The notes: generated by a model from the letters alone, not told the origin. DNA of 32,000 nt from Nitrosomonas europaea (GCF_900167395.1 NZ_FUWK01000032.1:1-32000); one strand, 5' to 3'; shown: positions 1-18,703, counted from the first letter of the stretch. Made by a program: numbers and translations.

Positions 1-294
1 GCTCTTGATCTGATCAGCGGGTTCAGGCCCTCGCATGTTCTGGCGGATAAAGGCTACGACAGCGATAATATTCTCGACGCCATTGCCTCCATGAAGGCCG
101 TGCCTGTCATCCCACCGCGATCAAACCGCAAAATACGAAGAACGTATGATCGCGAAATCTATAAATGCAGAAATATCATTGAGCGCACATTCAACAAACT
201 CAAGCATTGGCGCAGACTTTCAACCAGATATGACCGTAAAGCTATTTACTTCTCCGCCTTCATACATCTGGCTGCAGCAACTTTATGGCTTTAA
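1..294 (+). mobile_element. IS5-family (IS427/IS1031-like) DDE transposase, C-terminal fragment entering from the left window edge. The IS right end lies somewhere in about 295-400.
   Basis: Frame 1 is open from nt 1: ALDLISGFRPSHVLADKGYDSDNILDAIASMKAVPVIPPRSNRKIRRTYDREIYKCRNIIERTFNKLKHWRRLSTRYDRKAIYFSAFIHLAAATLWL*. The ADKGYDS, PVIPPRSNRK, YK-RN-IER-F-LK and R-ATRYDK-like signatures are typical of the C-terminal DDE region of IS5-family transposases. The terminal inverted repeat could not be defined without the left end. Confidence 0.8.
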
Positions 295-365
295 ATGTCG
301 ATTCGACCTAGACACGATCTGACACCTCGATGCCCGGCATCACTTCCATCTGGTTTAATCCCAAG

Positions 366-395
366 TTGATTAAGCATTCTGATTACCCTCATAAT
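366..395 (+). promoter_or_regulatory. Candidate sigma70 promoter for the convergent ATP-grasp gene
   Basis: TTGATT (366-371), an 18-nt spacer, then CATAAT (390-395), about 55 nt upstream of the ATG at 449. Pattern match only. Confidence 0.3.
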
Positions 396-448
396 GTGTC
401 ACAAACGCGTATATCCCCAACATGGAACAGCATTAGTATTTATTCGTT

Positions 449-1570
449 ATGAAAAACTTTATCAGGAAGTTGATACGAGCACTCACAGCTATCAGGCTTG
501 AAACCGATCGCTACAAACATTCAACCCTACGTATAATTATCAATTGGCTCACCGCATTCCTTAAAGATTTATTTTCAGCTCAAGAAATTCGATTATACGG
601 ACTTGCTGATCCCGAAGATGGTGCTAATCGTATCCGACAGTATGTTTCGAAGGAAATGGCAGATCGCTTTTACCGTAAATATAATCCTGGCGCTGCGGTT
701 CCAAACATTGAAGATAAATTTATTTTTACCACCCTATGCTTACAACATCATCTGCCTATTCCTGCAACTTATGGTATTTTCAAACAAGGTATTGTTAAAA
801 CATTTGATGAAAGAATTTTTCAGGAATCAAGTAGATTCCGGGATTTTATTCGAGAATTAGAACCTGGAGAATATCTACTTAAACCCAATAATGGAATGCT
901 TGGACTGGGATTATCCATCTTGGAGATAGACGATCAAGGCAGCCTGAAATTTCAAGGAAAATCCATTACTGCAGACGATCTTTATAGAGAATTATGCTCT
1001 ATCGAGGTCACACTTCCTGCATCGAGCAAAGGAGATTCTGTTGACATGGATTTTGAGGGATTGCTGTTTCAACAGCGCATAGCCAACCATCCGGAAATTA
1101 CAAAACTGACTGGATTTAAAATGCTGCAAACGATCAGAATCTGCACGCATGTAACCGATAATAATCAGGTTGAGATACTTTTCGCTTTTATGAAGCTTGC
1201 TGGCCAGGAAGGCCTAGCCGATGCCTTTAATCTTGGCAAAACCGGTAATATGCTGGCAAAAATCGATCCAGCCACAGGCAAGTTTTGCAATGTCTATGCA
1301 ATGGATCAGCAGCAAGGCTATCTTGTAGAAACCACTCACCATGCAGTAACACAAGCAAATTTGCTAAATTTTACCGTTCCTCATTGGCAGGCATGTTTGA
1401 CGCTAGCCATGAAATTATCCACCACTTTCCTGCCATTGCGTGCAGTCGGATGGGATATTGCCATTACTGACAACCGCCCTGTGGTACTCGAAGGCAATGA
1501 CAACTGGGTGCCTGTTGTCCCCTTTGATATCAACATCGATAAGCTCAAGCAATACAAACTGAAATCTTGA
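449..1570 (+). CDS. Sugar-transfer-associated ATP-grasp family protein (PF14397-like), paralogue A
   Basis: 373-aa ORF. The C-terminal signature FLPLRAVGWDIAITDNRPVVLEGNDNW is shared with the neighbouring ORF 1578-2663 (FAPLRTIGWDVAVTNEGPFLIEGNVFW). There is also a central KP-x-x-G-x-x-G-x-G nucleotide-binding-like segment (LLKPNNGMLGLGLS). Family call is from memory of the ATPgrasp_ST family and has not been HMM-verified. Confidence 0.6.
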   Translation: MKNFIRKLIRALTAIRLETDRYKHSTLRIIINWLTAFLKDLFSAQEIRLYGLADPEDGANRIRQYVSKEMADRFYRKYNPGAAVPNIEDKFIFTTLCLQHHLPIPATYGIFKQGIVKTFDERIFQESSRFRDFIRELEPGEYLLKPNNGMLGLGLSILEIDDQGSLKFQGKSITADDLYRELCSIEVTLPASSKGDSVDMDFEGLLFQQRIANHPEITKLTGFKMLQTIRICTHVTDNNQVEILFAFMKLAGQEGLADAFNLGKTGNMLAKIDPATGKFCNVYAMDQQQGYLVETTHHAVTQANLLNFTVPHWQACLTLAMKLSTTFLPLRAVGWDIAITDNRPVVLEGNDNWVPVVPFDINIDKLKQYKLKS

Positions 1571-1577
1571 TAGAAAT

Positions 1578-2663
1578 CTAGTTCACGAGAGGCGCATTCA
1601 GCGCCATAAGCAATTGACATATAGCCTGCATACTCCCCTCTTGAGGCGTTAACGGATCCCAGAAGACATTACCTTCAATTAAAAAAGGACCCTCATTGGT
1701 CACCGCAACATCCCAACCGATAGTCCGTAATGGAGCAAATGCTTTCTGGGCATTCAGAACAAGCACTACACATTGATTCCAGAAAGGAATTGTAAATTCT
1801 GTTTTCTTTCCACTGATATCTTCAATATAGTCATAACGCACCAGATACTTTTTTATGTGATCATACTTAATGAAGCTCTCAATTTTTCCGTACTCATCAA
1901 TTAAACATAGACGCCCATTACTTATTCCCCATGAAAAATTATCAATCAGGTTTCCTTGTTTAGGAAACTTGATTTTTCGAATAATCAGTTTGGGCTGACC
2001 ATTTTCATCAAGACAGGTAATCAAACGCAAGCTTTGCAAAACTGTATTCCCCGTAAATTCCGCAATAGCTTGATGACTGTATAACCTTTTTTGCAAGATA
2101 TATCGATCAGGGTTTTCAGCTAGTATTTTCTTGAATACATCACGTAATGACAAACTTAAATCGGTAGTAAATCGATGTACACCATCCACAAAATCCAAAG
2201 CTGATACCCCTTTACCATGGTAACCATAGACGGGCTTCATAATAATGTCAAAAGGATAACGAGCCAATCCATCCAACAAATTATTTTTGGTCTCAATGCC
2301 CTGCCCATTCTCCCAATAGGATTGGCCATTTGGGTCAAAAACTGCTACTAATTCGGGAACAGATAAGTTGTTCTTAATACAGTGATGATGAAATGCAATT
2401 TTATCTTCCGTTAGATACCAATGTGAAGCAGGATTCACTTTTTTCTGTAAATGCAGAAAGCATTCTTTACTGATCATCCCATTACGTTCTTCATTATTCC
2501 AGGATGGGTTAAGCAAATCTTCCATGAATATCTCCACTGGCGAATACTGCTCTGATGTCGCCAGCTGAAGAAAGCGCAGGTAGCTCGCTATTTTTGGATA
2601 ATGATTAACTCTGGTTATCTCATTTACCTGCTTGACAGCAGCATACAATTTTTGAAGTTTCAC
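1578..2663 (-). CDS. Sugar-transfer-associated ATP-grasp family protein (PF14397-like), paralogue B. Last gene of the minus-strand EPS operon.
   Basis: 361-aa ORF with a GTG start at 2663 and a TAG stop at 1578-1580. Carries IMKPVYGYHGKGVS and the C-terminal GWDVAVTNEGPFLIEGNVFW signature. It starts 18 nt downstream of the preceding ATP-grasp gene. Confidence 0.6.
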   Translation of the reverse strand: MKLQKLYAAVKQVNEITRVNHYPKIASYLRFLQLATSEQYSPVEIFMEDLLNPSWNNEERNGMISKECFLHLQKKVNPASHWYLTEDKIAFHHHCIKNNLSVPELVAVFDPNGQSYWENGQGIETKNNLLDGLARYPFDIIMKPVYGYHGKGVSALDFVDGVHRFTTDLSLSLRDVFKKILAENPDRYILQKRLYSHQAIAEFTGNTVLQSLRLITCLDENGQPKLIIRKIKFPKQGNLIDNFSWGISNGRLCLIDEYGKIESFIKYDHIKKYLVRYDYIEDISGKKTEFTIPFWNQCVVLVLNAQKAFAPLRTIGWDVAVTNEGPFLIEGNVFWDPLTPQEGSMQAICQLLMALNAPLVN

Positions 2664-2681
2664 TACGATATAGAGTATGGA

Positions 2682-3755
2682 TTAGGTTAGTTTTGAATAT
2701 AAATGAGGAACTGGATCAGTTATTGCTTGAACAAATCCGCGCACACTACCCACCGAGAGATTTTTCCAACCTTTATGTGGTAACAACAATTGCTTCCATA
2801 AGGAACCAGCCAGACAATAGCGCCCTTCTCCAGATTTTTCAGAAATTTTAGGCAACGTCCCTGTTTTTGTGTAATGAATGCCCATTTCGATAAAATTTAA
2901 TCCCTGCCACATCGAAGCAGAAATGGTATACCAAGCTCTGGGATTACATTCGATCACATATAATTTGCCATCACGTGCATCAATACGCATGTCAAAATGA
3001 GCCAACCCCTCGTAATGGAAAGCTTGAACCAATCGTGTAGCAATCGCATGCATTTCCGGATGTTGAGTAAACTCAAGTACCCCATCTTCCAGCCAGGATT
3101 GGACGGTATTGCACAGTATTCGATCATTCGCAGCCAGAATACTGATATCGATATCGCGCCCCGGTATATACGACTGTACAATCAACGGTAATTGTGCGTA
3201 GTGTGAGTCCTGTTCGATATACGTACGCAAAGCTTGAAGATTATCCAAACGCACCACCCCGTGACTAGACTCAGCCTCTAATGGCTTTACAATGAGTGGA
3301 AAACCAACTGGATCAAGAGTGCTGGTATCAAGCTGATCAGAAGATGTCAACAGGATTGTCGGAGGGATAGGCAATCTATATTTCGCACAGGTTTGTGCAA
3401 AAGACCACTTATTATGTAATGTATCCAGTATCACCTGATCACTACAAGGAAAGCATGGTAAATCTGGATAAGCCTTTTTTGTGGCCGCTAAGAACGCCGC
3501 ACTGCCCATGTCAGATGGCAATATGATATCAAAATTCTCCCCTTGAACTCTCTCTCTCAGTAATTGCTGAGTCTTTACAGATGGCAGACCATCCTGCCAA
3601 AATTGAACCTCACTATGTCCATCCGTATAACGAGAATATTTAAGTATTCGTGCACCGCGCGGCCCCGCTGTCTGAACAAAAGCATTCATGCCCTTCAAGC
3701 AATATAATACCTTCAACCCCAATGGACCAGATTCACAGAGCAACAATACTTTCAT
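2682..3755 (-). CDS. ATP-grasp domain carboxylate-amine ligase (classical type)
   Basis: 357-aa ORF. Has LIVKPLEAESSHGVVRL (the Lys-containing ATP-binding strand), IVQSYIPGRDIDISIL, and the Mg-binding E-x-N motif within HFDMRIDARDGKLYVIECNPRAW. Confidence 0.7.
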   Translation of the reverse strand: MKVLLLCESGPLGLKVLYCLKGMNAFVQTAGPRGARILKYSRYTDGHSEVQFWQDGLPSVKTQQLLRERVQGENFDIILPSDMGSAAFLAATKKAYPDLPCFPCSDQVILDTLHNKWSFAQTCAKYRLPIPPTILLTSSDQLDTSTLDPVGFPLIVKPLEAESSHGVVRLDNLQALRTYIEQDSHYAQLPLIVQSYIPGRDIDISILAANDRILCNTVQSWLEDGVLEFTQHPEMHAIATRLVQAFHYEGLAHFDMRIDARDGKLYVIECNPRAWYTISASMWQGLNFIEMGIHYTKTGTLPKISEKSGEGRYCLAGSLWKQLLLPHKGWKNLSVGSVRGFVQAITDPVPHLYSKLT

Positions 3756-3821
3756 GATATTTACATATAATCCAAATAATAAGACGATATAAGTTTAAGT
3801 AAAAACTACTCTGACCTTAAT

Positions 3822-4760
3822 CTAGGCCTTGGATCGAAATAGTTTTTTTATGGCCGCTTTCACACCAAATTTATCCAGCATTCGAACAATGCCATCCGAT
3901 AATTTGTCGCTGCTCGCATGCAGTGCCACTTTGATTAAATTGAGCCAGGTACGCCGAAAATAATACACATCTGCACAATATTGATTGTTGGTTGCAAAAA
4001 ATGCCTTATGCGCACCTTCTCCCTCGGTAAAATCAAAGATTTTTATATGACTTGCCGTAAACATACGCTGCAAAGCAAAATATTGCAGTAGAGTACCGGG
4101 AGACCAACGTTGATATTCCGGGTCATGACCCACGTATTCGTAGAGAGCAATCCCGTCATGTACTGGACAATAAATATAAGCGATCGGCTTTTTCTGATAA
4201 AAAAGAAGATAACCTCGTACGTTATCCTCAGCAGCAAGCGCTAGCATATTCTCTTGAAATTGTTGATCAGAAGGTAAACCACAATCGAGCAGCCGCTCCT
4301 GATAAGTTTTTTGTGAAACTTCCATTGCCAGCTTATAAAATTCATGCATTTCTTCCGGTTTGCAATATTCCCTCCAATCTATCTCTCCTCCTGATAACTC
4401 AGCAAATCTTTTTATTTTTCGCAAGAGTGTGTTTCTGGATTTGGCAGAAAATTTTTTCAGATAATCTTCAAAATTGCCATCAAGTACGACCCAGTATCGT
4501 CGATAGCTTGAAGGAATATACTGAATCGCTTGGGGCAATATGCTTAGCTTAGCTAGCGATGATTCTATCGGATGAGAACGTGTCACTACTACGTCAACAG
4601 AATCTCTGAATAATTTTGGAAGCTCTGCCGGTACGGTTGGATGGATAGGAAGTTTAGTGAAATGAGTTTTCAGTACGCAGGCATTCAATGGCCAGGCGAG
4701 AACACTCATTTCTCCCAATCGCACAGTGAAGTTTATTGATTGCCTGGACCATTCTTCCAT
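3822..4760 (-). CDS. GNAT-fold, FemAB-like acetyltransferase-domain protein (PF13480 / CelD-BcsL-like)
   Basis: 312-aa ORF. FEDYLKKFSAKSRNTLLRKIKRF is followed by a C-terminal GNAT-like core (YLLFYQKKPIAYIYCPVHDGIALYEYVGHDPEYQRWSPGTLL), typical of the BioF2-like/FemAB-like acetyltransferase family. The ATG at 4760 shares one nt with the TGA of the upstream gene (TGATG). Confidence 0.6.
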   Translation of the reverse strand: MEEWSRQSINFTVRLGEMSVLAWPLNACVLKTHFTKLPIHPTVPAELPKLFRDSVDVVVTRSHPIESSLAKLSILPQAIQYIPSSYRRYWVVLDGNFEDYLKKFSAKSRNTLLRKIKRFAELSGGEIDWREYCKPEEMHEFYKLAMEVSQKTYQERLLDCGLPSDQQFQENMLALAAEDNVRGYLLFYQKKPIAYIYCPVHDGIALYEYVGHDPEYQRWSPGTLLQYFALQRMFTASHIKIFDFTEGEGAHKAFFATNNQYCADVYYFRRTWLNLIKVALHASSDKLSDGIVRMLDKFGVKAAIKKLFRSKA

Positions 4761-5752
4761 CAGAAAAACCTTGAATGGATCTGCTCAGCATAACGCTTAA
4801 TCGTATGATGCAGACGAGAATATAAAATTTTCTGTGGCCTTATTTCAGGAATCGTTATTGGATCAAGCTCGGAAAACAGAGTAGTTCTAAATTTATCGGG
4901 ATGATCAGATAAAAATTTACACAAATGATTAAAGCGACTGATATTCAATTTATCCGGCAAACTTAATTTACCGATACTTCTGCCTTTAACTAGCTCAAAA
5001 CTATGCAAGACAATTACAAATGAAAACCAGCCTTGTCGCCAGGCATTGAGTAAGACTGTTTCCATTTCTTTTGTAGAACATGCTGCCAGTTGGACATGTC
5101 GCCAATGGTTTGGATAATCCTGAAAAAAAGAAATAGGGAATTCCCATACACCCTCAATCTTACATGGCTGAAGCAACTGTTCATTCAGATCAATCTTGCA
5201 ATCTTCGCCCAGATAGCAAGAGTTATAGCTGGAATCAAACAACAGCTTATTTTGTGCTACAGCGCGTAACGTATCCCGATTAGCACCATAACCTCCAGCG
5301 CGAAAGGCATGTAGTTCTTTTACGCCAGCTGCCTGAAGACTGCGTATTCCCTTTGCAATTAAGGTCACCTGCTCATCTAAAGTGAATTGATGCATGTATT
5401 GCTTAAAATGGACAGGAATAGTTGGATCATAAATTTCACTGAGCCATTCAGTATGCAAGTGTAGCTGGACTTCCTGGTCATTACGTTGAATCAAATCAAC
5501 TATGTCTGCAAGATGATTGCTGCCAATCCGGTCAGCAAACAGTGGCTCCAGAAAATAAGTGGCTTTTAATCCATACTGATTAAATCGCTCAATTTGATAA
5601 GGCAGCCCGAATTCACCTTCAGATGTTTTGCCATAAAAGCATGCAGCAATTTCTTCATCAAACGCTATTTTATACGGTGACAAGGCACGTACCGGCCAGC
5701 CATCGGAATAAGGCCATAGCTCAGTGTCAACGGTGAGATAAACGTTCAACAT
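4760..5752 (-). CDS. Divergent NodB-fold / polysaccharide-deacetylase-like protein
   Basis: 330-aa ORF with an AGGAG Shine-Dalgarno 5 nt before the ATG. The N-terminal LTVDTE (Asp-x-Glu metal/catalytic-like), HLHTEW (His-x-His-like) and FRAGGYG segments resemble divergent CE4-type deacetylases. This is the weakest family call in the operon. Confidence 0.45.
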   Translation of the reverse strand: MLNVYLTVDTELWPYSDGWPVRALSPYKIAFDEEIAACFYGKTSEGEFGLPYQIERFNQYGLKATYFLEPLFADRIGSNHLADIVDLIQRNDQEVQLHLHTEWLSEIYDPTIPVHFKQYMHQFTLDEQVTLIAKGIRSLQAAGVKELHAFRAGGYGANRDTLRAVAQNKLLFDSSYNSCYLGEDCKIDLNEQLLQPCKIEGVWEFPISFFQDYPNHWRHVQLAACSTKEMETVLLNAWRQGWFSFVIVLHSFELVKGRSIGKLSLPDKLNISRFNHLCKFLSDHPDKFRTTLFSELDPITIPEIRPQKILYSRLHHTIKRYAEQIHSRFF

Positions 5753-5800
5753 TGAACTCCTGCCCCCCAGTCGAGAATCCTATGTTTTATTAAATCAATA

Positions 5801-7735
5801 TCAGGCAACCTTTTTATCCTGCCCGGTATATGACATATTCCCCATACTAAGTATGTTGCGCAAAAAAGCCTCAAACATCAATAGTGTCCAGATAGGTGCA
5901 CTGTAATCCCGTCTGCCGGATTGGTGCTGGTCAAGCATTTTTTTGATGAATCCCATATCAAAAATTCCGGTACCAGCCAGTGTATTGCCCAGTAACGCAG
6001 TGCGCACACGTTCACGTAATGGGCCGCGGAACCAGCTGGCCAATGGTACTGAAAAACCCATCTTGTTCCGGTAAAGCACTTCGTTCGGTAAATAGGGTTC
6101 CAGTGATCTTTTGAGAATATATTTTCCTTCCTGTTGACGTAACTTCATGGAGGCAGGCAACCCCGAAACCCATTCGACCAGTTCATGATCCAGCAGCGGG
6201 ACCCGCACTTCCAGTGAATGCGCCATACTGGCACGATCCACCTTGGTCAGAATATCGCCCACCAGATAAGTTTTCATATCCAGATACTGAATCAGTGATA
6301 AAGCATCTTTTGTCGGGCTTTTATCCGCATAATCACGTAATACCTCTACCGCCCGATAGCCCTGCAGATCACGATAAAAATCCCGGGTAAATAACTGCAT
6401 ACGCAGCTTATTATCCAGAATGGATACGCTGTGGAAATAACCTTCCACGGAATCGCGCGCAAGTGATTCAAATGTAGTTTTGGCACGCAGGAATTTCGGT
6501 GCCCAGTCCGCCTTAGGATAAACACTGCCCAACAGACCAAATAAAGGTTTACGCAATCCCAATGGTAATTTTGAACGCAACCGTTCCTCTATCATGTGCC
6601 AGCGATAACGGCGATAACCGGCAAAATTCTCATCTCCTCCATCTCCGGAAAGCGCTACTGTCACCCGTTTCCTGGCTAACTCACAGACACGATAAGTCGG
6701 AATAGCAGAGCTATCAGCAAATGGTTCATCGTAGAGCGCAGCCAGTCGATCGATGAGATCAAAATCATCTTGCTGAACCTGTTCAGTAAAATGCCGGGTC
6801 TGGTAGCGTTCAGCAACCAGCCGGGCATAATCCGATTCATCAAAAGCGGGATCGGAAAAAGCGATTGAACAGGTATTGACCGGTTCTTTCATCAGCCCCC
6901 CCATCATCGCAACGACAGCACTGGAATCCACTCCACCGGAAAGAAATGCACCCAGCGGTACTTCACTCATGAGGTGACTATCCACCGCATTTCGCAATCG
7001 GAGAATCAATTCTTCTGCAGCTTCCTCTTCACTCAGAGAACCGTGCGGTGTAAACGGTATATCCCAGTATTCGCGGGATTGCACAGTCTGTTGCCCACGC
7101 TGCAATGACAACAGATGGCCAGGATTCAGTTTGAAGGCATTTTTAAAAATAGTTTTTGGCTCGGGAATATAGCCATAAGCAAAATAGTCTTCTATCGCCC
7201 GATGATCGAACGTTTTGTCAAAATCCGGATGAACCAGCAAGGCTTTGAGTTCCGAGGCAAACAGAAATAATCCGTTATCCAGCAGGGTATAGTAAAACGG
7301 TTTGATACCCAGCCGATCACGTGCCATGAACAATGTTTGCCGGTTACGATCCCACACACCAAAGGCAAACATACCACTGAAACGTTCGACACAACGTTCA
7401 CCCCATTCTTCCCAGGCATGTACGATCACTTCCGTATCGCAATGGGTACGAAATCGATGCCCCAGCGCTGTCAACTCTCCGACCAGTTTCTGGAAATTAT
7501 AGATTTCACCATTGAAGACAACGACCACGCTGCCATCTTCATTGAACAATGGCTGCTGACCGCTGGATACATCCATGATCGACAGGCGACGGTGCCCTAA
7601 TCCCAGCCCTGATTCAACATATACCTCTCCTTCATCCGGACCGCGATGCGTCAGTGTTTCATTCATGCGATGAAGCAGATTACGGTCGATCTCACTTGTA
7701 CTGCGCGTATCAAATACACCTGTTATGCCACACAT
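5801..7735 (-). CDS. Asparagine synthetase (glutamine-hydrolysing) family; XrtA/PEP-CTERM system-associated amidotransferase 1 type
   Basis: 644-aa ORF. Has the N-terminal MCGI Cys2 nucleophile, the GHRRLSI and NGEIYN glutaminase motifs, and the PP-loop FLSGGVDSS. Its position directly after the stp2-type glycosyltransferase matches the canonical XrtA locus order. Confidence 0.9.
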   Translation of the reverse strand: MCGITGVFDTRSTSEIDRNLLHRMNETLTHRGPDEGEVYVESGLGLGHRRLSIMDVSSGQQPLFNEDGSVVVVFNGEIYNFQKLVGELTALGHRFRTHCDTEVIVHAWEEWGERCVERFSGMFAFGVWDRNRQTLFMARDRLGIKPFYYTLLDNGLFLFASELKALLVHPDFDKTFDHRAIEDYFAYGYIPEPKTIFKNAFKLNPGHLLSLQRGQQTVQSREYWDIPFTPHGSLSEEEAAEELILRLRNAVDSHLMSEVPLGAFLSGGVDSSAVVAMMGGLMKEPVNTCSIAFSDPAFDESDYARLVAERYQTRHFTEQVQQDDFDLIDRLAALYDEPFADSSAIPTYRVCELARKRVTVALSGDGGDENFAGYRRYRWHMIEERLRSKLPLGLRKPLFGLLGSVYPKADWAPKFLRAKTTFESLARDSVEGYFHSVSILDNKLRMQLFTRDFYRDLQGYRAVEVLRDYADKSPTKDALSLIQYLDMKTYLVGDILTKVDRASMAHSLEVRVPLLDHELVEWVSGLPASMKLRQQEGKYILKRSLEPYLPNEVLYRNKMGFSVPLASWFRGPLRERVRTALLGNTLAGTGIFDMGFIKKMLDQHQSGRRDYSAPIWTLLMFEAFLRNILSMGNMSYTGQDKKVA

Positions 7736-7747
7736 ATTTTTATCCGG

Positions 7748-8911
7748 TCAGTTGATCGTTTCAGTTTTTGATTTATAACCCAGTACCCGATCATAAACCG
7801 CAAGATAACCATTTGTCATTGAACGCATACTGAACTGCTGCTCAATGATTGCTCGTGCATGCTGTCCGTGCTTGTATACCGCGGTATTATCCTGATGATA
7901 TTGACTTATTGCACGGGCCAGCGCGACCGGGTCTCCCGAAGGCACCAGACGGCCGGTTTCCCCCTCCAGAACCAGTTCGGTATTGCCTCCCACTCGAGTT
8001 GCAATAACCGGCAGGCCACTCGCCATGGCTTCCAGAACAGTATTGGAAATTCCTTCCCCCAAAGAGGGCAGTACGAACACATCCATTGCCTGCATCAGCT
8101 GAGGAATGTCGTCACGTTCTCCCGGAAGCCAGGCAAATTGCTCAACTCCGGCTGAGCGCAGCATGGCCTCGCATTCTGCTCTCGCCACACCCTCTCCTGC
8201 AATGATGAGCCGTAATGGCCTGTCGATTTCAGATAATTCATTTCGCAACATCAGAAAAGCCTGTACCAGTGTCGGAAAATCCTTGACTGCCGCCATTCGG
8301 CCAACACTCCCCACAACGAATGGCCTGCCAGCGAAGAAATCCGGAGGAAATATCTCGACCGGAACAGTGCCACCTGGATGGAAACGCAGATGTTCCACGC
8401 CGTTATAAATCTGGTGTACTTTCACTGGAGATACCTTCACCGTATCAATCAACCAGTTTTCCAGATCTTTACTGACGGTAATGAAGTGGTGGATAAACGG
8501 GCGAATTGCCTTGCGCAACAGATTGTATTTCCAGTTTTTACCGTCGAGGTCAAAAATATCCCGGCCATGTTCCCCATGCACCCGTGCCTTCACACCTGCC
8601 ACAGCAGCAACCACCTGCGCTTCCATAGCTGTGAGATTACGCGTGTGCACGATATCCGGCTTAAGTTGCCTGAACACTCTGTAAAGTTTGCCGTAGACAC
8701 TGAAATCTTTTCCTTCGCGTTTGTTCAGCGCAATGATCTCGACATCATCCCGGTTAAGGCGTTTGTGAAATTCCGAGAATCCCTTGAGGCAAATGATGGC
8801 ATGCCGGTAACGATCCGCAGGAATATGATTGATCAGATTCACCAGACCATTTTCGAGCCCGCCTACTCCCAGATGAAAAATCACATGCACAATCAGAGGA
8901 GGATGGGACAT
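7748..8911 (-). CDS. GT4-family glycosyltransferase (PEP-CTERM/EpsH1 system-associated sugar transferase, stp2 type)
   Basis: The ORF track gives 7748-8971. I prefer the ATG at 8911 (MSHPPLIVHVIFHLGVGGLENG), which follows a GGAG about 9 nt upstream and lies 16 nt after the xrtA stop. The GVGGLENG N-terminal motif and the E-x7-E C-terminal motif (EGISNTVLEAMASGLPVIAT) are present. Confidence 0.85.
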   Translation of the reverse strand: MSHPPLIVHVIFHLGVGGLENGLVNLINHIPADRYRHAIICLKGFSEFHKRLNRDDVEIIALNKREGKDFSVYGKLYRVFRQLKPDIVHTRNLTAMEAQVVAAVAGVKARVHGEHGRDIFDLDGKNWKYNLLRKAIRPFIHHFITVSKDLENWLIDTVKVSPVKVHQIYNGVEHLRFHPGGTVPVEIFPPDFFAGRPFVVGSVGRMAAVKDFPTLVQAFLMLRNELSEIDRPLRLIIAGEGVARAECEAMLRSAGVEQFAWLPGERDDIPQLMQAMDVFVLPSLGEGISNTVLEAMASGLPVIATRVGGNTELVLEGETGRLVPSGDPVALARAISQYHQDNTAVYKHGQHARAIIEQQFSMRSMTNGYLAVYDRVLGYKSKTETIN

Positions 8912-8927
8912 TACTCTGATCTCCGCC

Positions 8928-10526
8928 TCAGTCAGTCTGTGCGCTGTGAACAGCCTGAAGTTTCCCGGCAATCACTGGCTTCATATCAGCCATAAACTCG
9001 CGCAGTACTGCTGCAGCCTCTTCCGGATCATGCTCATAGCCCGCAGCAATGATGATCTCGGCGCCATCATCTCCATTGCCCCAAACTCGATTTAGCGCCT
9101 GAATCATTTTGGCAACGTAAGGGTCAGCCGTTTCATAGCCGATCAGCCAGAACCACCTCCAGATCAGCAAGCGCTCTTTCGAAGCATGTAACTGATTCTG
9201 GTGCACAGTGAACGGTGCATCACCCAGCGAAATATTCCGCTTGCTTCCATCCATATTTCGCCACCTGCTGTCCCGGTCACTCACCAGAACATTGCTGGAA
9301 CTGACCAGTTTGTTATTCTGATCCTGATTCCGGTAATATGTTATATAAAGACCAACATGTTTATTTTCGCGATAGAAATGACCAATGAACTGCCTGGGAA
9401 AACCAATATAACCAGGTATCCAGTCAGTAAGAGAAGCTGAGGCCGTACTCCATTTACCGGAAAGATCTGCCACACTGATTTCCGATATCGGGCGTACATC
9501 GGATTTATTATTCAAATAATTCAGATAAACTGGCCAGATCATGGCGACTGCCACCACCAGTCCAGCCATGCCCAACGTTGATTTAATCGGGACGGAAGAA
9601 GATTCCAGACTAGCTGAGGAAGAATTTTCAACTGATACGGTTTCATCAAGATGATCTTCCCGCCAGAATGAGCCGATCCAGAACAGCAGCAACATGACCA
9701 GACCAAAAAAGATCCAGCCATAAACCAGATGATCGACACCAACCGCCAGTTGCATATCACTGAGATGACCGGTCATGACGATCAGATATGCGCGCACCCC
9801 GTTGGCAACGATCGGTACTACGATCGAAAATGCAATGAATATCAGTCTCCGGCTGATACTGTGGTAGGTCAGATAGGCGTAAAGTGTTCCCAACGTCACC
9901 GAAGCAATCAGATAACGCACTCCGCTACAGGCTTCCACAACCGACCAGTTACCGCTGGGAATACTGAAGAAACTCCCCTCACGATAAACCGGAATACCAG
10001 TTGCCTGTAACGCGCCAACGGTAAAATCAGCTGTAAAATCAATGAGAGGTGGAATGAATATTTCACCGAATGGTACAGCAAACAGCAGATATGCAAGTGG
10101 AAACAGAATGGCACTAAAAGCGCGTAAACCAAGCAAAGCCCAGACGATCACTGGTATCATCGCGACCAGAGCGTACTGTTCCACCACCACAACACTTGCA
10201 GCAGAAGCCAGCAACCACCCCGCCCCCAGCCCGACCAGCACCGATAATGGCATATAGTCAGGACGGTATTGAATCGTCGATAGCATTGCACGCTTTTTCC
10301 AGATCATGTACACGCTGAACGGGAGGATCAGGTAACCATGAGCATAGGTATCAGACCGGTTCCAGATAGCTACCATCGATTCGACGGTTGTATGATAAAT
10401 ACCCAGGATGACGGCGATTACCAGCAAGGTGATCAATGCTGTCACACTTCGCCCGTTAATCATTCTGCTGCCGACAGCAGTACGTTGTGATTGAACTGTA
10501 ATATTCATGGCAGAACCATCAGTCAA
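8928..10526 (-). CDS. xrtA: Exosortase A (XrtA) fused to a C-terminal EpsI-family domain
   Basis: 532-aa ORF with a TTG start preceded by GGAAGG. It is polytopic, with the exosortase catalytic signatures VVEACSGVRYL (Cys), PIVANGVRAY (Arg) and a downstream His (MTGHLSD). After about residue 300 there is one more TM helix (GMAGLVVAVAMIWPVYL) and then a roughly 200-aa soluble domain, as in EpsI. Gene context is the complete XrtA cassette. Confidence 0.85.
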   Translation of the reverse strand: MTDGSAMNITVQSQRTAVGSRMINGRSVTALITLLVIAVILGIYHTTVESMVAIWNRSDTYAHGYLILPFSVYMIWKKRAMLSTIQYRPDYMPLSVLVGLGAGWLLASAASVVVVEQYALVAMIPVIVWALLGLRAFSAILFPLAYLLFAVPFGEIFIPPLIDFTADFTVGALQATGIPVYREGSFFSIPSGNWSVVEACSGVRYLIASVTLGTLYAYLTYHSISRRLIFIAFSIVVPIVANGVRAYLIVMTGHLSDMQLAVGVDHLVYGWIFFGLVMLLLFWIGSFWREDHLDETVSVENSSSASLESSSVPIKSTLGMAGLVVAVAMIWPVYLNYLNNKSDVRPISEISVADLSGKWSTASASLTDWIPGYIGFPRQFIGHFYRENKHVGLYITYYRNQDQNNKLVSSSNVLVSDRDSRWRNMDGSKRNISLGDAPFTVHQNQLHASKERLLIWRWFWLIGYETADPYVAKMIQALNRVWGNGDDGAEIIIAAGYEHDPEEAAAVLREFMADMKPVIAGKLQAVHSAQTD

Positions 10527-10588
10527 AATAACCTTCCGCTAATGTATCTGGATATGGCAGAAACGGCCCATTTTTACTGAACCTTAAC

Positions 10589-11785
10589 CTAGGGTGCCGC
10601 AAGCAACGCATCGATTCGTGACAGATTAGCCGGCCAGGTGTAATCCTGCAGAACTCGTTCTCTCGCCAGTCGTCCCATGGTTACCTGTTCATCAGAGTCG
10701 AGAAGCAAGAGAATCTGCTCAGCAAAATCCCCGGCATCCCCAGCCACGATCAGTTCCTTCTCTGATACGGCATGAATTCCCTCCATTGCCTGTACGGAAA
10801 CAACAACAGGTTTTTGCATGGCCATTGCCTCCAGCACTTTGTTCTGGATACCCCGCGCAATCCGCAAGGGAGCAACTGCCACTGCTGCATGTATAAGATA
10901 CGGCCGAATATCCTCTACAGCGCCGGTCACATAGATCCCCGGCAAATCTGCCAGCATCTGTACCTGTCTGGCGGGTTTAGCACCCACAATATAAAAATCG
11001 ACATCCGGCTGTTTCGTGCGTATCGCAGGAAATACTGAATTTGCAAACCAGCTTACTGCATCGATATTAGCCCAATAATCCATGGCACCTGTAAACACCA
11101 GCACTTTCTTTGCAGCCGGATAAGGATTGAGATAACTACGCTGAGGGGAAAAAAAATCGGTATCGACACCATTATTGAAGAATGTCGTCTTACTTGCTGC
11201 ATCCGGCGCAAGCTGCCGGAATAACTCCGCCTCTTTTTCCGAAACAAAAGTTGAATGGCTGAATTCTTCCGCCACTTTCCTTTCATAATTCAGCAAATAT
11301 CGTGATTCCCTGTGATAAATCCGGTTGAACGGCCACTGCTTTGATAAAGCGTACTGCCGCCATTTATCCGAATCCACATCAACGAAATCGATGATGCGCC
11401 GACAACCAGATAAATGTTCAACATACTGCGCCATGGCAGAAGAGAAAACCACAATATCCTGTATGGATTCATTGCTGAACAGCGCTTTAATCCACTGCAT
11501 CAGCCTCGCGTCGCGATAATAAGCCAGTGTCAGCGGATCATTCCCGAACAACGCAAACAGGCTTCTTATCCTGGCCGACAGCGGATTCAGCCTGACAATG
11601 CATACATCCTGACAATACTTTCTGACTTCATCTTCATACTGCCAGTCTTCTTCATCATCAATGAACGTTCCCAGGTACACACGATAACGCTTGCTGAGGT
11701 GCTGCAGAAGATGAAAAGAACGTATCTTGTCTCCCTTATTGGGTGGATAAGGAATTCTGTGTGTCAGATAAAGGAGTCCCCGCAT
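10589..11785 (-). CDS. GT-B glycosyltransferase (PEP-CTERM/EpsH1 system-associated sugar transferase, stp1 type)
   Basis: 398-aa ORF. The N-terminus MRGLLYLTHRIPYPPNKGDKIRSFH is typical of this subfamily. The C-terminal GIQNKVLEAMAMQKPVVVS is a nucleotide-sugar binding region. Confidence 0.8.
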   Translation of the reverse strand: MRGLLYLTHRIPYPPNKGDKIRSFHLLQHLSKRYRVYLGTFIDDEEDWQYEDEVRKYCQDVCIVRLNPLSARIRSLFALFGNDPLTLAYYRDARLMQWIKALFSNESIQDIVVFSSAMAQYVEHLSGCRRIIDFVDVDSDKWRQYALSKQWPFNRIYHRESRYLLNYERKVAEEFSHSTFVSEKEAELFRQLAPDAASKTTFFNNGVDTDFFSPQRSYLNPYPAAKKVLVFTGAMDYWANIDAVSWFANSVFPAIRTKQPDVDFYIVGAKPARQVQMLADLPGIYVTGAVEDIRPYLIHAAVAVAPLRIARGIQNKVLEAMAMQKPVVVSVQAMEGIHAVSEKELIVAGDAGDFAEQILLLLDSDEQVTMGRLARERVLQDYTWPANLSRIDALLAAP

Positions 11786-11791
11786 CCTTTC

Positions 11792-12871
11792 TTAACCCAG
11801 ATTTTTAACGATATGCGGGCCGAGCATATTGGCCAGAGCCAAAGGCATCTTCTGCCAAGCCTTGATAAAAAGCTGATACTTTGGATTAAGCGGATTATGT
11901 TCAGGAATCGTTTTTGCTTGATGGAGCTGGTATTCATAAAACAACGGCTGCGGCTCAAACCCCCAGTTCTTTTTAAAACTGTATGATCCGGTTCCTCGCT
12001 TGCTGCGTCCGAAATCGAAAACCCGGTAGCCCCGTTCACAGGCACGCCGCATCAGTTCCCAGTACATGAAATCATTACCCGCCAGATCTCGAGCCGCGTC
12101 CGTTCCACCGCCATAATAAGGCAGCACTTCATCCCGGAAATAGAAACTCATGACTGCGCTGACTACATTTTCATCTTTAGTGATAATGAGCAGCTCACAA
12201 TCTTCTGCAAAAACACTTTTCAATAACCGGAAATATTTGCGGGAAAAAACTGGTGTACCCAGGCGATGTACACTGGCTGAATAGGCTCGAAAAAAATGGT
12301 CGGTATCCTGATCCAGATAGCTCTGCAACTCATATTTCATCCCTTTACGTACCATGGCACGCTGCTTGCGGGGAATTGCCAGCATGTTTTGCTCTACATC
12401 AGAATCCATGGTTTTGCGGAACGTAACGTATAAATCTTTAGTGGGCCAATCGTGGTGAAAAGGGTGAAGATGACGATATTCCAGATAATCAACCTTCAGA
12501 TATGTTGCCAACATCTGGGCTGCCTGATCAAGGCGGATTCGTGCGTCATCTGATATTGCAGCAATACCACCATACACACAAAATGGCAAAGCACTCAGGC
12601 TGTGCCCGAATAACAAACTGTCAATCTCTGCCAGAGGCAATACACCTTGAATACACCCGCCCTCTTCTATATACAGGAACCAGGTTTTATGCCCGAAAGC
12701 TTGTTCTATCACCTGCTTCCATCCGGCACGGTGAAAAAAGGTCGCTTCAGGACAAGCCATGATGAACTCATCCCAAGCCTGGAATTTATCTGGGGATAAC
12801 ACAGAAATCCCGGGTAATGCGCCTGGAAACAAATAAGGCGTATTTTGCACAATAGAACCGCTGAAACTCAC
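11792..12871 (-). CDS. FemAB-related protein, PEP-CTERM system-associated
   Basis: 359-aa ORF. The GTG start overlaps the upstream stop (GTGA). ATFFHRAGWKQVIEQAFGH, VLPYYGGG and FDFGRS segments are typical of FemAB-like (aminoacyl-transferase fold) proteins found in XrtA loci. Confidence 0.8.
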   Translation of the reverse strand: MSFSGSIVQNTPYLFPGALPGISVLSPDKFQAWDEFIMACPEATFFHRAGWKQVIEQAFGHKTWFLYIEEGGCIQGVLPLAEIDSLLFGHSLSALPFCVYGGIAAISDDARIRLDQAAQMLATYLKVDYLEYRHLHPFHHDWPTKDLYVTFRKTMDSDVEQNMLAIPRKQRAMVRKGMKYELQSYLDQDTDHFFRAYSASVHRLGTPVFSRKYFRLLKSVFAEDCELLIITKDENVVSAVMSFYFRDEVLPYYGGGTDAARDLAGNDFMYWELMRRACERGYRVFDFGRSKRGTGSYSFKKNWGFEPQPLFYEYQLHQAKTIPEHNPLNPKYQLFIKAWQKMPLALANMLGPHIVKNLG

Positions 12872-13716
12872 ACCGACTGTCGCAGGAAAATCTGATCCAT
12901 ACGCCCCCAGTCGAAATGTCGGATCAGGGCATCGAGCCGTTTTTCCATACGACCCAGATTAAGGTAATGACGAAAACGCGTCTTGAAGCTAATTCCCACT
13001 TGCCGGGGCTGATCGGGATCGATCTCCCATGGGTGAAAATAAAAAATTGCAGGTTGACGATCAACTGAGTTGACTCTCTGCAAAAACCAGCGCGAAACCG
13101 CATAGGGCCAAAGACGGAAATAGCCGCCTCCACCTGCTGGAAAATTACGATCCAGCAAGCGTACAGTAGTTACCGGTAATTCAAGTATTTTCCGGGAGCC
13201 AGTCGGATTAAAGGCAAAACGCGGAGCGTCCGGCATACCGTAATGATCATGCTCTACCGGATAAATACTGGAACTATATCGATAGCCTGCTTCTTCCAGG
13301 TAATCCAGCGCCCAGAGATTATCTTTATTGATAGAAAAACTGGGGGCACGATACCCCCAGACAGACTGCCCACCAATATCTTCCAGCAGGAATTTACTGC
13401 GAGCAATATCATCATAAAACTGCCCGCGGCTCAGCTCAGTAACACGGTGATGGGCATAACCATGACTGGCCAGTTCATGGCCATTCTCAACAATTCTTTT
13501 CACCATGGACGGATAACGCTCTGCTATCCAGCCCAATGTAAAAAAAGTGGCCTTGATTTTATGCTCGTCCAGCAACACGAGAATCCGGTCAATATTGCGC
13601 TCGACTCTGCATGGCAAACTATCCCAGGATGAACGCGGAATATACCGGGCAAAAGCCGATACCTGGAAATAATCTTCCACATCAATGGTCAACGCATTAC
13701 GGATCATAAGATTCAT
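12868..13716 (-). CDS. XrtA-system polysaccharide deacetylase (NodB/CE4)
   Basis: 282-aa ORF. Has the NodB motifs LTIDVEDYF and HELASHGYAH, followed by WGYRAPSFS. ATGA overlap with the upstream ATPase gene. Confidence 0.85.
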   Translation of the reverse strand: MNLMIRNALTIDVEDYFQVSAFARYIPRSSWDSLPCRVERNIDRILVLLDEHKIKATFFTLGWIAERYPSMVKRIVENGHELASHGYAHHRVTELSRGQFYDDIARSKFLLEDIGGQSVWGYRAPSFSINKDNLWALDYLEEAGYRYSSSIYPVEHDHYGMPDAPRFAFNPTGSRKILELPVTTVRLLDRNFPAGGGGYFRLWPYAVSRWFLQRVNSVDRQPAIFYFHPWEIDPDQPRQVGISFKTRFRHYLNLGRMEKRLDALIRHFDWGRMDQIFLRQSV

Positions 13717-14546
13717 TCAGGAGAAACCGCCAGATCAAACTCTTTTTGAATATCGAGCATTACTTCATTCGCTTCAGCTTTACCCAAAGTCTGTAATTCT
13801 TCCAAACACCCCATGATCAGCAATCTGTCACAAAACAGATTGATTTTACGAGGAATCCCGGCAGAAAAATTATGTATCACTTCAAAAATCTCATCCTGCA
13901 GTACAGGACTTCCATTCCAACCGGCTTTTTGAAGACGATGTTCGATATAGGCCCTGGTTTCCGCCTGATCCAGCGGACCCAGATGATAGGTGGCAATCAC
14001 TCTCTGGCGCAGTTGCTGCATTTGACTGCCGAGCAACGTCCTCCTGAACTCTGGCTGGCCAAGTAAAAAGGTTTGTAACAAAGGCCTGTTATCTGACTGA
14101 AAGTTCGATAACATCCGCAATTCTTCAAGTGTCTGCGGAAGAAGATTTTGTGCCTCATCAACCACTAGTAAAACTCGTGTACTTTCCCGTTCACACTTAC
14201 GCATAAATCGTTCGAGCTCGAGCAGCAATGCAGCCTTGGACAGACCTTCATAAGAAAGGCCAAAAGCAGCAGCTACCATTCTCAAGGCATCATCCGGGTC
14301 CAGCCGTGTACTCACCAATTGTGCAGCCGCCACCCGCTCTTGCCTCAACTTCTGGAACAGGTAGCGCATCAGGGTTGTTTTGCCAGCGCCTACATCACCC
14401 GTAATGATGATAAAACCATCTTCCTGCGAAAGGCCGTATTCAAGATAAGCCGCAGCACGTTTATGGCCTCGACTGGGAAAAAAGAAATTCGGGTCGGGTT
14501 TTAACTGAAACGGCTTCTCAGCAAAACCATAGTAGGCTAGATACAT
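13713..14546 (-). CDS. XrtA/PEP-CTERM system-associated AAA ATPase (ExeA-like)
   Basis: 277-aa ORF. The N-terminus MYLAYYGFAEKPF is typical of ExeA-like proteins. Walker A is GDVGAGKTT and Walker B is LLVVDEAQNL. Confidence 0.85.
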   Translation of the reverse strand: MYLAYYGFAEKPFQLKPDPNFFFPSRGHKRAAAYLEYGLSQEDGFIIITGDVGAGKTTLMRYLFQKLRQERVAAAQLVSTRLDPDDALRMVAAAFGLSYEGLSKAALLLELERFMRKCERESTRVLLVVDEAQNLLPQTLEELRMLSNFQSDNRPLLQTFLLGQPEFRRTLLGSQMQQLRQRVIATYHLGPLDQAETRAYIEHRLQKAGWNGSPVLQDEIFEVIHNFSAGIPRKINLFCDRLLIMGCLEELQTLGKAEANEVMLDIQKEFDLAVSPE

Positions 14547-14560
14547 AAAATTTCAATTTT

Positions 14561-16135
14561 CTAAAAATTCATGTTCAAAGTAGCCGTTATCGCATTGGCA
14601 TCATAGCTGCCGTTATTGCGATTAGACTCACGGTGGAGATGATAGTACATGATCGACCCGCTGATATTAGAAGTAAATCGCTTATTCAAGCCGGCCGTCA
14701 CTATTATGTTGTCATCTTCCTGACTGGTTACATCATAACTGGTTCTGATATACCCCAGATTGATATTGGCATTTGTTCTGGGAGACAACCGGTGATTCCA
14801 CAATAGATTGCCTCCTGTCTGCGTAGTATCTCTAGTCAATGCTGCATTCTCGATACCAATCAAATCAGCATCTTCCTCATCTGAACTGAATGATTTTCTG
14901 GAATAGCTAAATCCACGAAATACCAGCGAATTCTTCTTACCATTCAAAGTAAGCGAAGCCTGTAAACGTCTAAGCAAAAACAAACGATTGGTCAGAAAAT
15001 TATTCGGGTCAGAAAATGAGAGCGGAAGCCCCTGGTTCAATAATGCGTCTCCTCCCTGAATGCCGGAAAATAATTGACCCAACATAGAGGCACTCAAAAT
15101 TGAACCACCAGCCAGAGATTGCTGACCGAAAGTAGTGATATCCTCTACATAACTCAGATTCCATACTGTACTGCGAGTACGGTGATCAACTGATGCTGCA
15201 TAAGTATTACCGAAAAATCTTTTCCCTCCTGACGCATCAATTTTCGTCCTTTTGGTAGGAGTCCAAGAAAAACCAACTGTCCATAATGGGCTGGATGTCC
15301 GCCCTCTTATCGAAATAAAACTGTTGCGCTCATATCCCGCCGTACCGATCAGGCTAAATTGTGACGTCACTATATATCTAAGTGTGCCAGTAGTCCGCTC
15401 CAGCTCGATCGTTTGCAACCTCCCAAGATTGGATCTGGCATACTTTCTGTCGATCTGTGTATGACTGTAATTGACTCCCCAGCCAAGCGTCCTGAACGCC
15501 GAACCGCTATTCAGAGAAAAAATTGCCGCATCAGAGCTGCTATTGGAGAAACTATTGGCATTCGAACTGACTTCACCGTGAACGTAGCGAACTTCACCTG
15601 AAGCAAGATTACTGAAACGCTGGCGCACATAGGGACTGATATTCCACATGTAGATATTTCTCCGATTTCCCGTCAAAACGGCATTATCCGGCGCCTGTGG
15701 CCCAAACAAGAAAGCATTCTGCTGGGAGATTGTAGCTCGCCCATCTACAAAAAAATGATGCTTGATAATTTCAGCAGTGGCATCAGTATTCAATTGATTC
15801 CGTATCCGGAATCGCTCATTTTTTGCGTAAATGAGATTATTCAAAGTGTAACTAAGATTCGATTTAAAGCGACGCCCTTCACCGGTTATACTTACCCCCG
15901 GGTTAATTTGTGTAATAAACTCCCCTCCTCTGCCAGCTCCACCAAACCCTCCGAAACCTCCTCCACCTAACCCCACGTTATCAGTATAAGTCTCGCTGAC
16001 TGTTAACCGTGGCTGAATATTCCACTCTGCTGCACTTACCTGAAACCCCCAGCTACTCAATCCAACAATACAACCAACCCTCAGACACATCCTCAAACGG
16101 GAGAAATTGTCATTACCGCACCCAAATGATTTCAT
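14561..16135 (-). CDS. PEP-CTERM system-associated putative outer-membrane beta-barrel protein
   Basis: About 524 aa. A signal-peptide-like N-terminus ends FQVSA-AE. The rest is rich in alternating Y/S/T/N/G with a C-terminal aromatic residue (LNMNF), as in OM beta-barrels. The ATG at 16135 overlaps the TGA of the kinase gene (TGATG); the ORF-track start at 16138 is a TTG one codon upstream. Confidence 0.65.
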   Translation of the reverse strand: MKSFGCGNDNFSRLRMCLRVGCIVGLSSWGFQVSAAEWNIQPRLTVSETYTDNVGLGGGGFGGFGGAGRGGEFITQINPGVSITGEGRRFKSNLSYTLNNLIYAKNERFRIRNQLNTDATAEIIKHHFFVDGRATISQQNAFLFGPQAPDNAVLTGNRRNIYMWNISPYVRQRFSNLASGEVRYVHGEVSSNANSFSNSSSDAAIFSLNSGSAFRTLGWGVNYSHTQIDRKYARSNLGRLQTIELERTTGTLRYIVTSQFSLIGTAGYERNSFISIRGRTSSPLWTVGFSWTPTKRTKIDASGGKRFFGNTYAASVDHRTRSTVWNLSYVEDITTFGQQSLAGGSILSASMLGQLFSGIQGGDALLNQGLPLSFSDPNNFLTNRLFLLRRLQASLTLNGKKNSLVFRGFSYSRKSFSSDEEDADLIGIENAALTRDTTQTGGNLLWNHRLSPRTNANINLGYIRTSYDVTSQEDDNIIVTAGLNKRFTSNISGSIMYYHLHRESNRNNGSYDANAITATLNMNF

Positions 16136-17076: not shown

Positions 17077-17110
17077 TCCATCATTATATTACAACCCTTA
17101 CACCATCAAT

Positions 17111-18661: not shown

Positions 18662-18703
18662 ATCGGGTCACCTCTTCATTTATCACGATCACGATCAAAT
18701 CAA

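Follow-up and report, generated by a model that had tools for sequence, protein, structure and literature searches.

The window analysed here, a stretch of 32,000 nucleotides of Nitrosomonas europaea DNA (NZ_FUWK01000032.1:1-32000), carries on its minus strand an XrtA/PEP-CTERM exopolysaccharide (EPS) operon whose last core gene is followed by a tail of five genes. These encode a NodB/CE4-fold protein that is a candidate de-N-acetylase (4760-5752, 330 aa), a GNAT of the PF13480 (Acetyltransf_6) family (3822-4760, 312 aa) and a classical ATP-grasp ligase (2682-3755, 357 aa), all three on the minus strand, and two paralogues of the PF14397 (ATPgrasp_ST) family, one on the plus strand (paralogue 1, 449-1570, 373 aa) and the other on the minus strand (paralogue 2, 1578-2663, 361 aa, GTG start). 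The five open reading frames (ORFs) have the boundaries given in a preliminary description of this DNA. The core operon is complete: it ends with a WbpS-like XrtA/PEP-CTERM amidotransferase (5801-7735, minus strand; TIGR03108, 1151 bits against a cut-off of 817), and its remainder (7748-19321, minus strand, assigned with NCBIfam) comprises, from 7748 on, a glycosyltransferase (GT; TIGR03088), XrtA-EpsI, a second GT (TIGR03087), a FemAB-like protein (TIGR03019), a deacetylase (TIGR03006), an ATPase (TIGR03015), an outer-membrane protein (TIGR03016), a tyrosine kinase (TIGR03018), a chain-length determinant (TIGR03007) and an exporter (TIGR03027), all eleven core genes, from 19321 to 5801, exceeding their NCBIfam cut-offs. 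None of the five tail proteins matches any XrtA-associated NCBIfam model, in agreement with the earlier statement that the tail lies outside the XrtA core set.

The junctions described previously were also found. A gap of 48 nt separates the amidotransferase stop from the gene at 4760-5752, with a ribosome-binding site (RBS), GGCAGGAG, five nt ahead of the ATG; the stop of this gene overlaps the start of the GNAT gene (TGATG at 4760), and the next genes follow after gaps of 66 nt and 18 nt. There is no terminator-like site in the 48-nt gap, the counts of the terminator and promoter scan being at chance level and uninformative on transcription. The proposal that 449-1570 is a co-oriented member of the operon did not hold, since this gene lies on the plus strand and converges on 1578-2663, the two stop codons being 7 nt apart; thus only four of the five tail genes could share the operon transcript, of which 1578-2663 is the final co-oriented gene. 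Profile searches placed two tail proteins in PF14397, one among classical ATP-grasps and one in PF13480, as had been proposed, and returned no match to Pfam (including PF01522) or NCBIfam for the 4760-5752 protein. By prediction, the locus encodes six enzymes of the amide-bond type and two deacetylase-like proteins, one in the core and one in the tail, the tally given before.

All three ATP-grasp proteins are predicted ligases by sequence, and the PF14397 pair keeps its catalytic residues and a RimK-type resemblance. The protein encoded at 449-1570 matches PF14397 at 1.5e-79 (267.5 bits) and that at 1578-2663 at 1e-33 (117.2 bits), both far above the gathering cut-off of 31.4; the two share 25% identity over 356 residues (E 6e-35), which bears out their designation as divergent sugar-transfer-associated ATP-grasp paralogues. 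K145, D336 and E348 never vary in a joint alignment of both paralogue families, in which N350 is conserved at 90% or more. Searching the PDB with the single sequence of 449-1570 gave nothing useful; its AlphaFold (AF2) model (pLDDT 89) has N-terminal 100 residues that are all-helical, and Foldseek placed RimK best, then ATP-grasp peptide ligases, LysX and Ddl. The 2682-3755 protein had been called a classical ATP-grasp with an E-x-N motif, and it matches Dala_Dala_lig_C (3e-12, 47 bits, cut-off 24), ATP-grasp_3 (4e-10, 40.6 bits, cut-off 23.2) and RimK (6e-5, 23.3 bits, cut-off 21), the motif reading VIECNPR in translation; its sequence matches in the PDB are RimK and Ddl, and no NCBIfam equivalog cut-off was reached. 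A full-text literature search for PF14397 by family name and accession returned no paper. We know of no characterized member of this family, whose Pfam description predicts a role in cell-surface polysaccharide biosynthesis. Arrays of four to six PF14397 paralogues were seen in four metagenome contigs (L162, L156, L168, and L176), suggesting longer assembly lines with a separate ligase for each residue.

The GNAT at 3822-4760 has PF13480 as its sole Pfam match (6e-17) and no NCBIfam match whatever. Its earlier designation, a PF13480-type FemAB-like GNAT, stands in its first part and not in its second, as neither PF02388 (at E<=0.01) nor TIGR03019 was matched and its similarity to the core FemAB-like protein was not significant (BLASTP E 0.34, hhalign E 0.26). 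These values also rule out that the gene is a recent copy of the core FemAB-like gene. Neither single-sequence nor profile searches of the PDB found anything useful. In most loci the NodB-like gene immediately precedes that of the GNAT, and in the window the pair is translationally coupled through the TGATG overlap. A circumstantial hint that an aminoacyl-tRNA could be the donor comes from relatives in which peptidyl-tRNA hydrolase (Pth) domains are fused to neighbouring Mur ligases.

We are confident that the 4760-5752 protein has a NodB-type (beta/alpha) barrel, as modelled. The AF2 model, built from 35 homologues, has a mean pLDDT of 93, and Foldseek against the PDB returned ArnD first (8t0j, E 2e-8), then 3rxz (2e-7), with 44 matches at E<=1e-3, mostly CE4 enzymes. 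ArnD is a deformylase whose substrate is undecaprenyl-phosphate-linked aminoarabinose. PDB sequence and profile searches were uninformative for this protein as for the GNAT, the single sequence giving nothing useful and the family profile E >= 0.58, and the NodB-like call rests on the fold search. Orthologues reach PF01522 only marginally; that of L098, a locus described below, scores for example 23.0 bits, the cut-off being 23.1. The family comprises 586 clusters at E<=1e-30 and 2464 at E<=1e-3 in a profile search of 1.84 billion representatives, and its conserved residues, D9-x-E11, H98-x-H100-x-E102-W103, R151-A-G and H250, all lie at strand ends of the model, in a pattern that resembles the NodB motifs (TFDD, HxxH, RxPY, LxH) without equalling them. 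Because these motifs differ from those of CE4 enzymes, the protein is NodB-like at the level of fold; of the designation NodB-like hydrolase the fold is thus retained, the PF01522 match is not, and the hydrolase activity is a prediction from the model. A recent duplication of the core deacetylase was considered as its origin and rejected (E 0.02, hhalign not significant). Members of the family occur fused to a C-terminal GT4 glycosyltransferase (P0186, 734 aa) and behind a methyltransferase domain (P0191, 888 aa), and GT4 genes adjoin members in L006 and L008.

The tail recurs in related genomes. The NodB-like gene is next after the XrtA amidotransferase in Nitrosomonas sp. HPC101 and three other genomes (48-81% identity to the window protein), and in three of these four the PF13480 gene then follows. 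A full module is present in L010/L011, L012 and the N. eutropha-like L097, in the order amidotransferase, NodB-like, GNAT, ATP-grasp, PF14397, a second and convergent PF14397, and two divergently transcribed fusions of about 628 aa, beyond which lie a GT in L010 and Wzx, a second AsnB and Wzy in L097. The fusions join the central and C-terminal domains of a MurF-like ligase to a Pth domain; they match the MurF model at 2e-55, which is under its cut-off, and the Pth domain scores 143 bits against the TIGR00447 cut-off of 100. Intact pairs of these Mur-Pth fusions occur in L010, L011, and L097, and tandems of two or three adjoin convergent PF14397 pairs (L010, 12359-16168; L097, 6119-9931; L013, 12400-18265). 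Both L010 fusions, when tested, showed a strongly hydrophobic segment near residue 222 (KD19 2.2). A full-text literature search for Mur ligase, Pth and ATP-grasp together found no paper.

At the far end of the cassette, the window retains traces of these partners. A relic of 22 Pth-domain residues from such a fusion (309-374, minus strand) was detected by tblastn, with 64% identity to residues 543-564 of L010 MurPth2, and next to it lies the 3' fragment of an IS5-family transposase with the end of its insertion sequence (IS; 1-303, plus strand), whose ORF (91-294) runs in from the window edge and matches NCBIfam NF033580 (transpos_IS5_3, 1e-21, profile positions 195-258 of 258) as well as Pfam DDE_Tnp_1_2. 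A sister contig that is free of the IS (L094) is 99.57% identical to window 304-11470, collinearity beginning at 304, and keeps a longer Pth relic (residues 542-618, 77 residues) together with fragments of a Polysacc_synt flippase. In L094 an 11-bp deletion (window 1286-1296) frameshifts the orthologue of 449-1570, which gene calling there splits into 336 aa and a remainder of 112 aa; in the window this gene is unbroken. The window and L094 are separated by 48 differences, 30 of them within 1578-2663, and the core has only 6 substitutions. This far end of the EPS variable region looks like a case of stepwise decay in which the Mur-Pth genes were lost by deletion and IS5 insertion, the IS5 of the window having shortened the Pth relic beyond its state in L094. 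About 27 of the 48 differences are concentrated in some 285 bp of the PF14397 gene (1847-2131), with compensating indels at 1917 and 1923 and zero differences in the adjoining 5 kb; this tract may reflect recombination or gene conversion, or an assembly artefact in L094.

The observation that weighs most is that the cassette also stands alone as a unit elsewhere. In Luteithermobacter gelatinilyticus (L098) all five orthologues are clustered (E 5e-23 to 3e-84) between hemF/SpoU and cytochrome bc1 genes, with no XrtA or Mur-Pth gene within 10 kb, and a further alphaproteobacterium (L179) has no fewer than four of the five at the equivalent site, where its contig breaks off within the gene following PF14397. 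The two genomes share the series porin, GNAT, DUF1285, NUDIX, PolyA polymerase, hemF and SpoU ahead of the cassette, whose internal order and orientation differ. The same five-gene cluster is found in a metagenome contig (L101); L117 and L123 carry NodB-like, GNAT, PF14397, pyridoxal phosphate (PLP) decarboxylase, ATP-grasp and AsnB genes; in a member of the Halieaceae (L067), two convergent PF14397 genes lie close to XrtA together with a GNAT and a NodB-like gene; and L013 combines a PF14397 pair with three Mur-Pth fusions, without XrtA, alongside an acyl-CoA ligase and a dehydrogenase. XrtA is absent within 10 kb of the cassette in L098, L179, L101, and L013. Altogether, the set recurs in Beta-, Alpha-, and Gammaproteobacteria: a NodB-fold protein, three ATP-grasps and the PF13480 GNAT, accompanied in some loci by MurF-like/Pth fusions.

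Compared with L097, the ratio of nonsynonymous to synonymous substitution rates (dN/dS) is 0.08-0.16 for the five tail genes (0.14 for 449-1570, 0.13 for 1578-2663, and 0.08 for 2682-3755) and 0.05-0.12 for the core, and the low values in the tail indicate that the five genes have been a functional unit over evolutionary time. Base composition differs between the two parts: GC is 0.39-0.43 in the tail (window 1-6000) against about 0.45-0.50 in the XrtA core (6000-19000), and GC at third codon positions (GC3) is 0.35-0.38 against 0.46-0.51, a low value that fits a foreign origin of the tail.

Two surveys, both classified by iterated profile searches, were used to estimate how often the cassette accompanies XrtA and other glycan genes. 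The first was seeded with the XrtA amidotransferase across GTDB species and took 80 loci among the matches listed, of which the 56 of at least 15 kb were counted; it contains no Nitrosomonas and measures the frequency of the cassette in other XrtA lineages only, while the Nitrosomonas loci described above were found with the cassette proteins as queries and are biased for frequency within the genus. Among the matches listed, XrtA was present in 50/56 and the core deacetylase and the core FemAB-like protein in 44/56 each, against five loci with a NodB-like gene, five with a tail-type GNAT and two with PF14397, and the usual followers of the amidotransferase were two GT4 genes. Tail genes therefore do not regularly accompany the core in the XrtA loci listed (NodB-like 5/56, PF14397 2/56), which places the tail outside the general XrtA system, as an optional add-on. 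The second survey started from PF14397 with an alignment narrower than the joint one of both families, which proved too diverse for a metagenome scan, and gave 80 metagenome loci, 30 of which, at least 10 kb long, were counted. None of these 30 contained XrtA; a GT was present in 18, two or more PF14397 genes in 9, a classical ATP-grasp in 9, and some further ligase in 15. The linkage of the cassette to glycan genes is frequent and not obligatory.

Amino-acid and peptide substituents are common on bacterial surface polysaccharides, and to our knowledge few of the enzymes that add them have been recognized. We give an even chance to the reading that the five genes form a horizontally mobile cassette of cytoplasmic amide ligases, inserted in a strain-variable region of the XrtA EPS locus, that decorates a sugar with an amino acid or short peptide. 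A cytoplasmic site for the chemistry is suggested by the lack of any hydrophobic segment in the five tail proteins (maximum KD19 < 1.3), the NodB-fold protein being predicted cytoplasmic, and by the ATP dependence of the three ATP-grasps. In the reaction order that we propose, the NodB-fold enzyme would N-deacylate an amino sugar, probably by taking off an acetyl group; this sugar may be part of a nucleotide-sugar or of an intermediate of the undecaprenyl-linked repeat unit. The fold suggests such a step, as does the nearest structural match, ArnD, which acts on a lipid-linked sugar. The coupled GNAT would then re-acylate the freed amine, likely with an aminoacyl or other acyl donor, by analogy with VimE/VimA, NodB/NodA and MshB/MshC/MshD. 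Each of the three ATP-grasps would attach one more amino acid or amine through an acyl-phosphate intermediate, as their conserved catalytic residues and RimK-like fold suggest, either to the substituent added by the GNAT or to the carboxylate of a uronic acid, and in relatives the two MurF-like ligase/Pth fusions may contribute further chain-extending steps. EPS would in this way acquire an amino acid or short peptide as a decoration, which would not be a universal component of XrtA systems; as the Mur-Pth genes are lost in this strain, the decoration would be shortened here, if it is still made.

Several observations weigh against this reading. No GT, Wzx or Wzy lies within 10 kb of the cassette in L098 or L179, and cassettes without nearby glycan genes imply that the substrate need not be EPS. 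The NodB-like protein shows D-x-E in place of the D-D of CE4 enzymes, and in sequence nothing ties the GNAT to FemABX, PF13480 membership being the common ground. In addition, the lineage of the window bears signs of decay, with the Mur-Pth relic, the IS5 insertion and the frameshift in the 449-1570 gene of L094.

Among the competing explanations, the one that fares best, unlikely in our view and still to be taken seriously, is that the cassette product is unrelated to the XrtA EPS, being for instance a small glyco-amino-acid or oligopeptide metabolite or a modification of some other envelope glycan (peptidoglycan or lipopolysaccharide, for example), and that the cassette came to lie next to XrtA because this variable region accepts foreign DNA. 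The cassettes standing alone at hemF/SpoU, in L098 (up to cytochrome bc1) and L179, with no GT nearby, agree with it, as do the L013 locus, in which the PF14397 pair and three Mur-Pth fusions keep company with an acyl-CoA ligase and a dehydrogenase and with no GT or XrtA, the low GC3 pointing to a foreign origin, and the resemblance of MurF-like, Ddl/RimK-like and GNAT enzymes to a kit for assembling the peptidoglycan stem. However, in L097 and L010 the cassette has the XrtA core on one side and Wzx, Wzy or GT genes on the other, and in the window its first gene, with its own RBS, is just 48 nt from the amidotransferase. Moreover, members of the NodB-like family are fused to GT4 (P0186) or have GT4 neighbours (L006 and L008), and more than half of the long PF14397-seeded loci (18/30) include a GT.

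The signs of decay could also mean that the cassette no longer functions in this strain and survives as a remnant that is being lost, its intact ORFs reflecting a recent inactivation of the pathway. The Mur-Pth partners are indeed cut down to a 22-residue relic abutting IS5, the flippase is fragmented in L094, and the same contig has the 11-bp frameshift in the 449-1570 gene and shows 30 of its 48 differences from the window in 1578-2663. We regard this as improbable, and distinctly less well supported than an unrelated product, given that the five ORFs of the window are full-length and keep their catalytic residues, that a five-gene set without Mur-Pth genes exists in L098, L101, and L002, and that the long-term dN/dS is 0.08-0.16.

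The preliminary description went further and saw in the tail a candidate exosortase-acceptor system, which would build or extend a peptide or amino-acid branch onto which XrtA transfers PEP-CTERM proteins. The idea of such an acceptor is not new, as Veith et al. (2020) proposed that VimA-related proteins of PEP-CTERM loci, with Nitrosomonas eutropha as an example, make an amino-acid-modified sugar that is the exosortase acceptor (PMC7468200), and it concerns the universal core trio TIGR03006/TIGR03019/TIGR03108, not the tail. For the tail, the adjacency of the cassette to the XrtA core, the RBS and lack of a terminator at the junction, and the repetition of this arrangement in several Nitrosomonas-type loci are in its favour; besides, there is precedent for a sortase-like system that relies on an aminoacyl sugar produced by a CE4 enzyme and a GNAT (PMC7468200), and a lineage-specific extension of a core-built aminoacyl sugar to a peptide would be chemically sensible. 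These points are outweighed by the survey, in which, among the matches listed, the core deacetylase and FemAB-like protein (44/56) far outnumber the NodB-like gene (5), the tail GNAT (5) and PF14397 (2), by the four loci with the cassette and no XrtA within 10 kb (L098, L179, L101, and L013), by the absence of XrtA from all 30 long PF14397-seeded loci, by the decay of the cassette here beside a core with only 6 substitutions, and by the published hypothesis being one about the core trio. Rare in XrtA loci, present where XrtA is not and decaying beside an intact core, the tail cannot be general acceptor machinery, and we judge even a lineage-specific role of this kind very improbable. Hardly more credible, and if anything slightly less so, is the version in which the Nitrosomonas-type cassette and the MurF-like/Pth proteins extend the core-made aminoacyl sugar into a peptidoglycan-like stem that serves as XrtA's nucleophile for PEP-CTERM proteins, which, if true, would make the peptide-stem acceptor a Gram-negative counterpart of the Fem-built cross-bridge of sortase. 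What remains of the former proposal is the amino-acid or short-peptide branch on EPS, which is plausible because the NodB-like/GNAT pair is coupled and mirrors VimE/VimA, without the acceptor role.

The decoration of EPS by a mobile ligase cassette, if it is indeed the function, has consequences beyond this locus. A compact gene set yields a concrete, testable reaction order for the substitution of polysaccharides with amino acids and peptides, and a natural comparison is available in strains that carry or lack the cassette (HPC101 and the N. eutropha-like genome, for example). Additionally, several hundred sequence clusters with a NodB fold, outside all Pfam and NCBIfam models, are now recognized, and the search for the exosortase acceptor is narrowed to the universal core trio as the candidate instead of the optional tail.

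Two further regions of the window deserve mention. At 25668-28900, the two genes of a CoA ligase come after one for a CitE/malyl-CoA-lyase-like protein; the beta subunit of the ligase matches NF010647 (malate--CoA ligase, 708 bits against a cut-off of 604), an unexpected finding in Nitrosomonas. At 29039-30841, two plus-strand ORFs that match no family are overlapped by one of 577 aa on the minus strand (29057-30790), which contains a Pfam peroxidase domain and is probably the real gene.

With regard to known systems, NodB/NodA, MshB/MshC/MshD and LpxC/LpxD all pair a sugar N-deacetylase with a second enzyme, from which the freed amine receives a new acyl or aminoacyl group, and mycothiol synthesis also involves an ATP-dependent ligase and a GNAT. 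The cassette shares with these pairs the logic only, there being no sequence relationship beyond the NodB fold. A second likeness is to the assembly of the peptidoglycan stem and cross-bridge (MurC-F, Ddl, and FemABX), since the full module has MurF-like ligases, Ddl/RimK-like ATP-grasps and a GNAT-fold transferase; in both, a chain would be built on a sugar with one ligase per residue, and the Pth domain may point to a link with tRNA. Unlike the peptidoglycan enzymes, the Mur proteins of the module are under the MurF cut-off and fused to Pth, the GNAT belongs to PF13480 and not to PF02388, and the cassette is located in an EPS locus or alone, not in a dcw cluster, the Mur-Pth genes being absent from the window save for the relic. 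The TupA-like amidoligases of PF14305 are a third relative in kind, as they are amide-forming ATP-grasps encoded within polysaccharide loci; one of them, the ATP-grasp domain Cj1438C of Campylobacter jejuni, amidates glucuronate in the capsule (PMC11800379). The tail differs from them in its family (PF14397), in the all-helical N-terminal 100 residues and in having three ligases together with a deacetylase-fold protein and a GNAT.

By analogy, the strongest precedent for the chemistry of the cassette is the Wbp/Vim pathway. Genetic evidence shows that VimE (CE4) and VimA (a GNAT that matches TIGR03019) convert a di-N-acetyl uronic acid to a 2-N-seryl or 2-N-glycyl sugar, and WbpS, of the TIGR03108 family, amidates the sugar of the Vim pathway, which is the linking sugar of type IX secretion (PMC7468200). 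As in that system, the tail has a deacetylase-fold gene immediately ahead of that for a GNAT, the neighbouring amidotransferase is of TIGR03108 type and the locus includes a sortase-like enzyme; an N-acetyl group would likewise be removed and an amino acid added, and the core trio is the set that Veith et al. link to exosortase. No WbpA/B/D/E homologues were seen among the annotated genes of the window. In contrast to Wbp/Vim, the tail pair is a second and very divergent copy, with a NodB-like protein that does not match PF01522 and a GNAT that does not match TIGR03019, and the tail has three ATP-grasps and, ancestrally, two MurF-like/Pth fusions, of which the Vim pathway has none. Overall, the cassette is undescribed in itself and is of a kind already known, that of amidoligase accessory genes in surface-polysaccharide loci.

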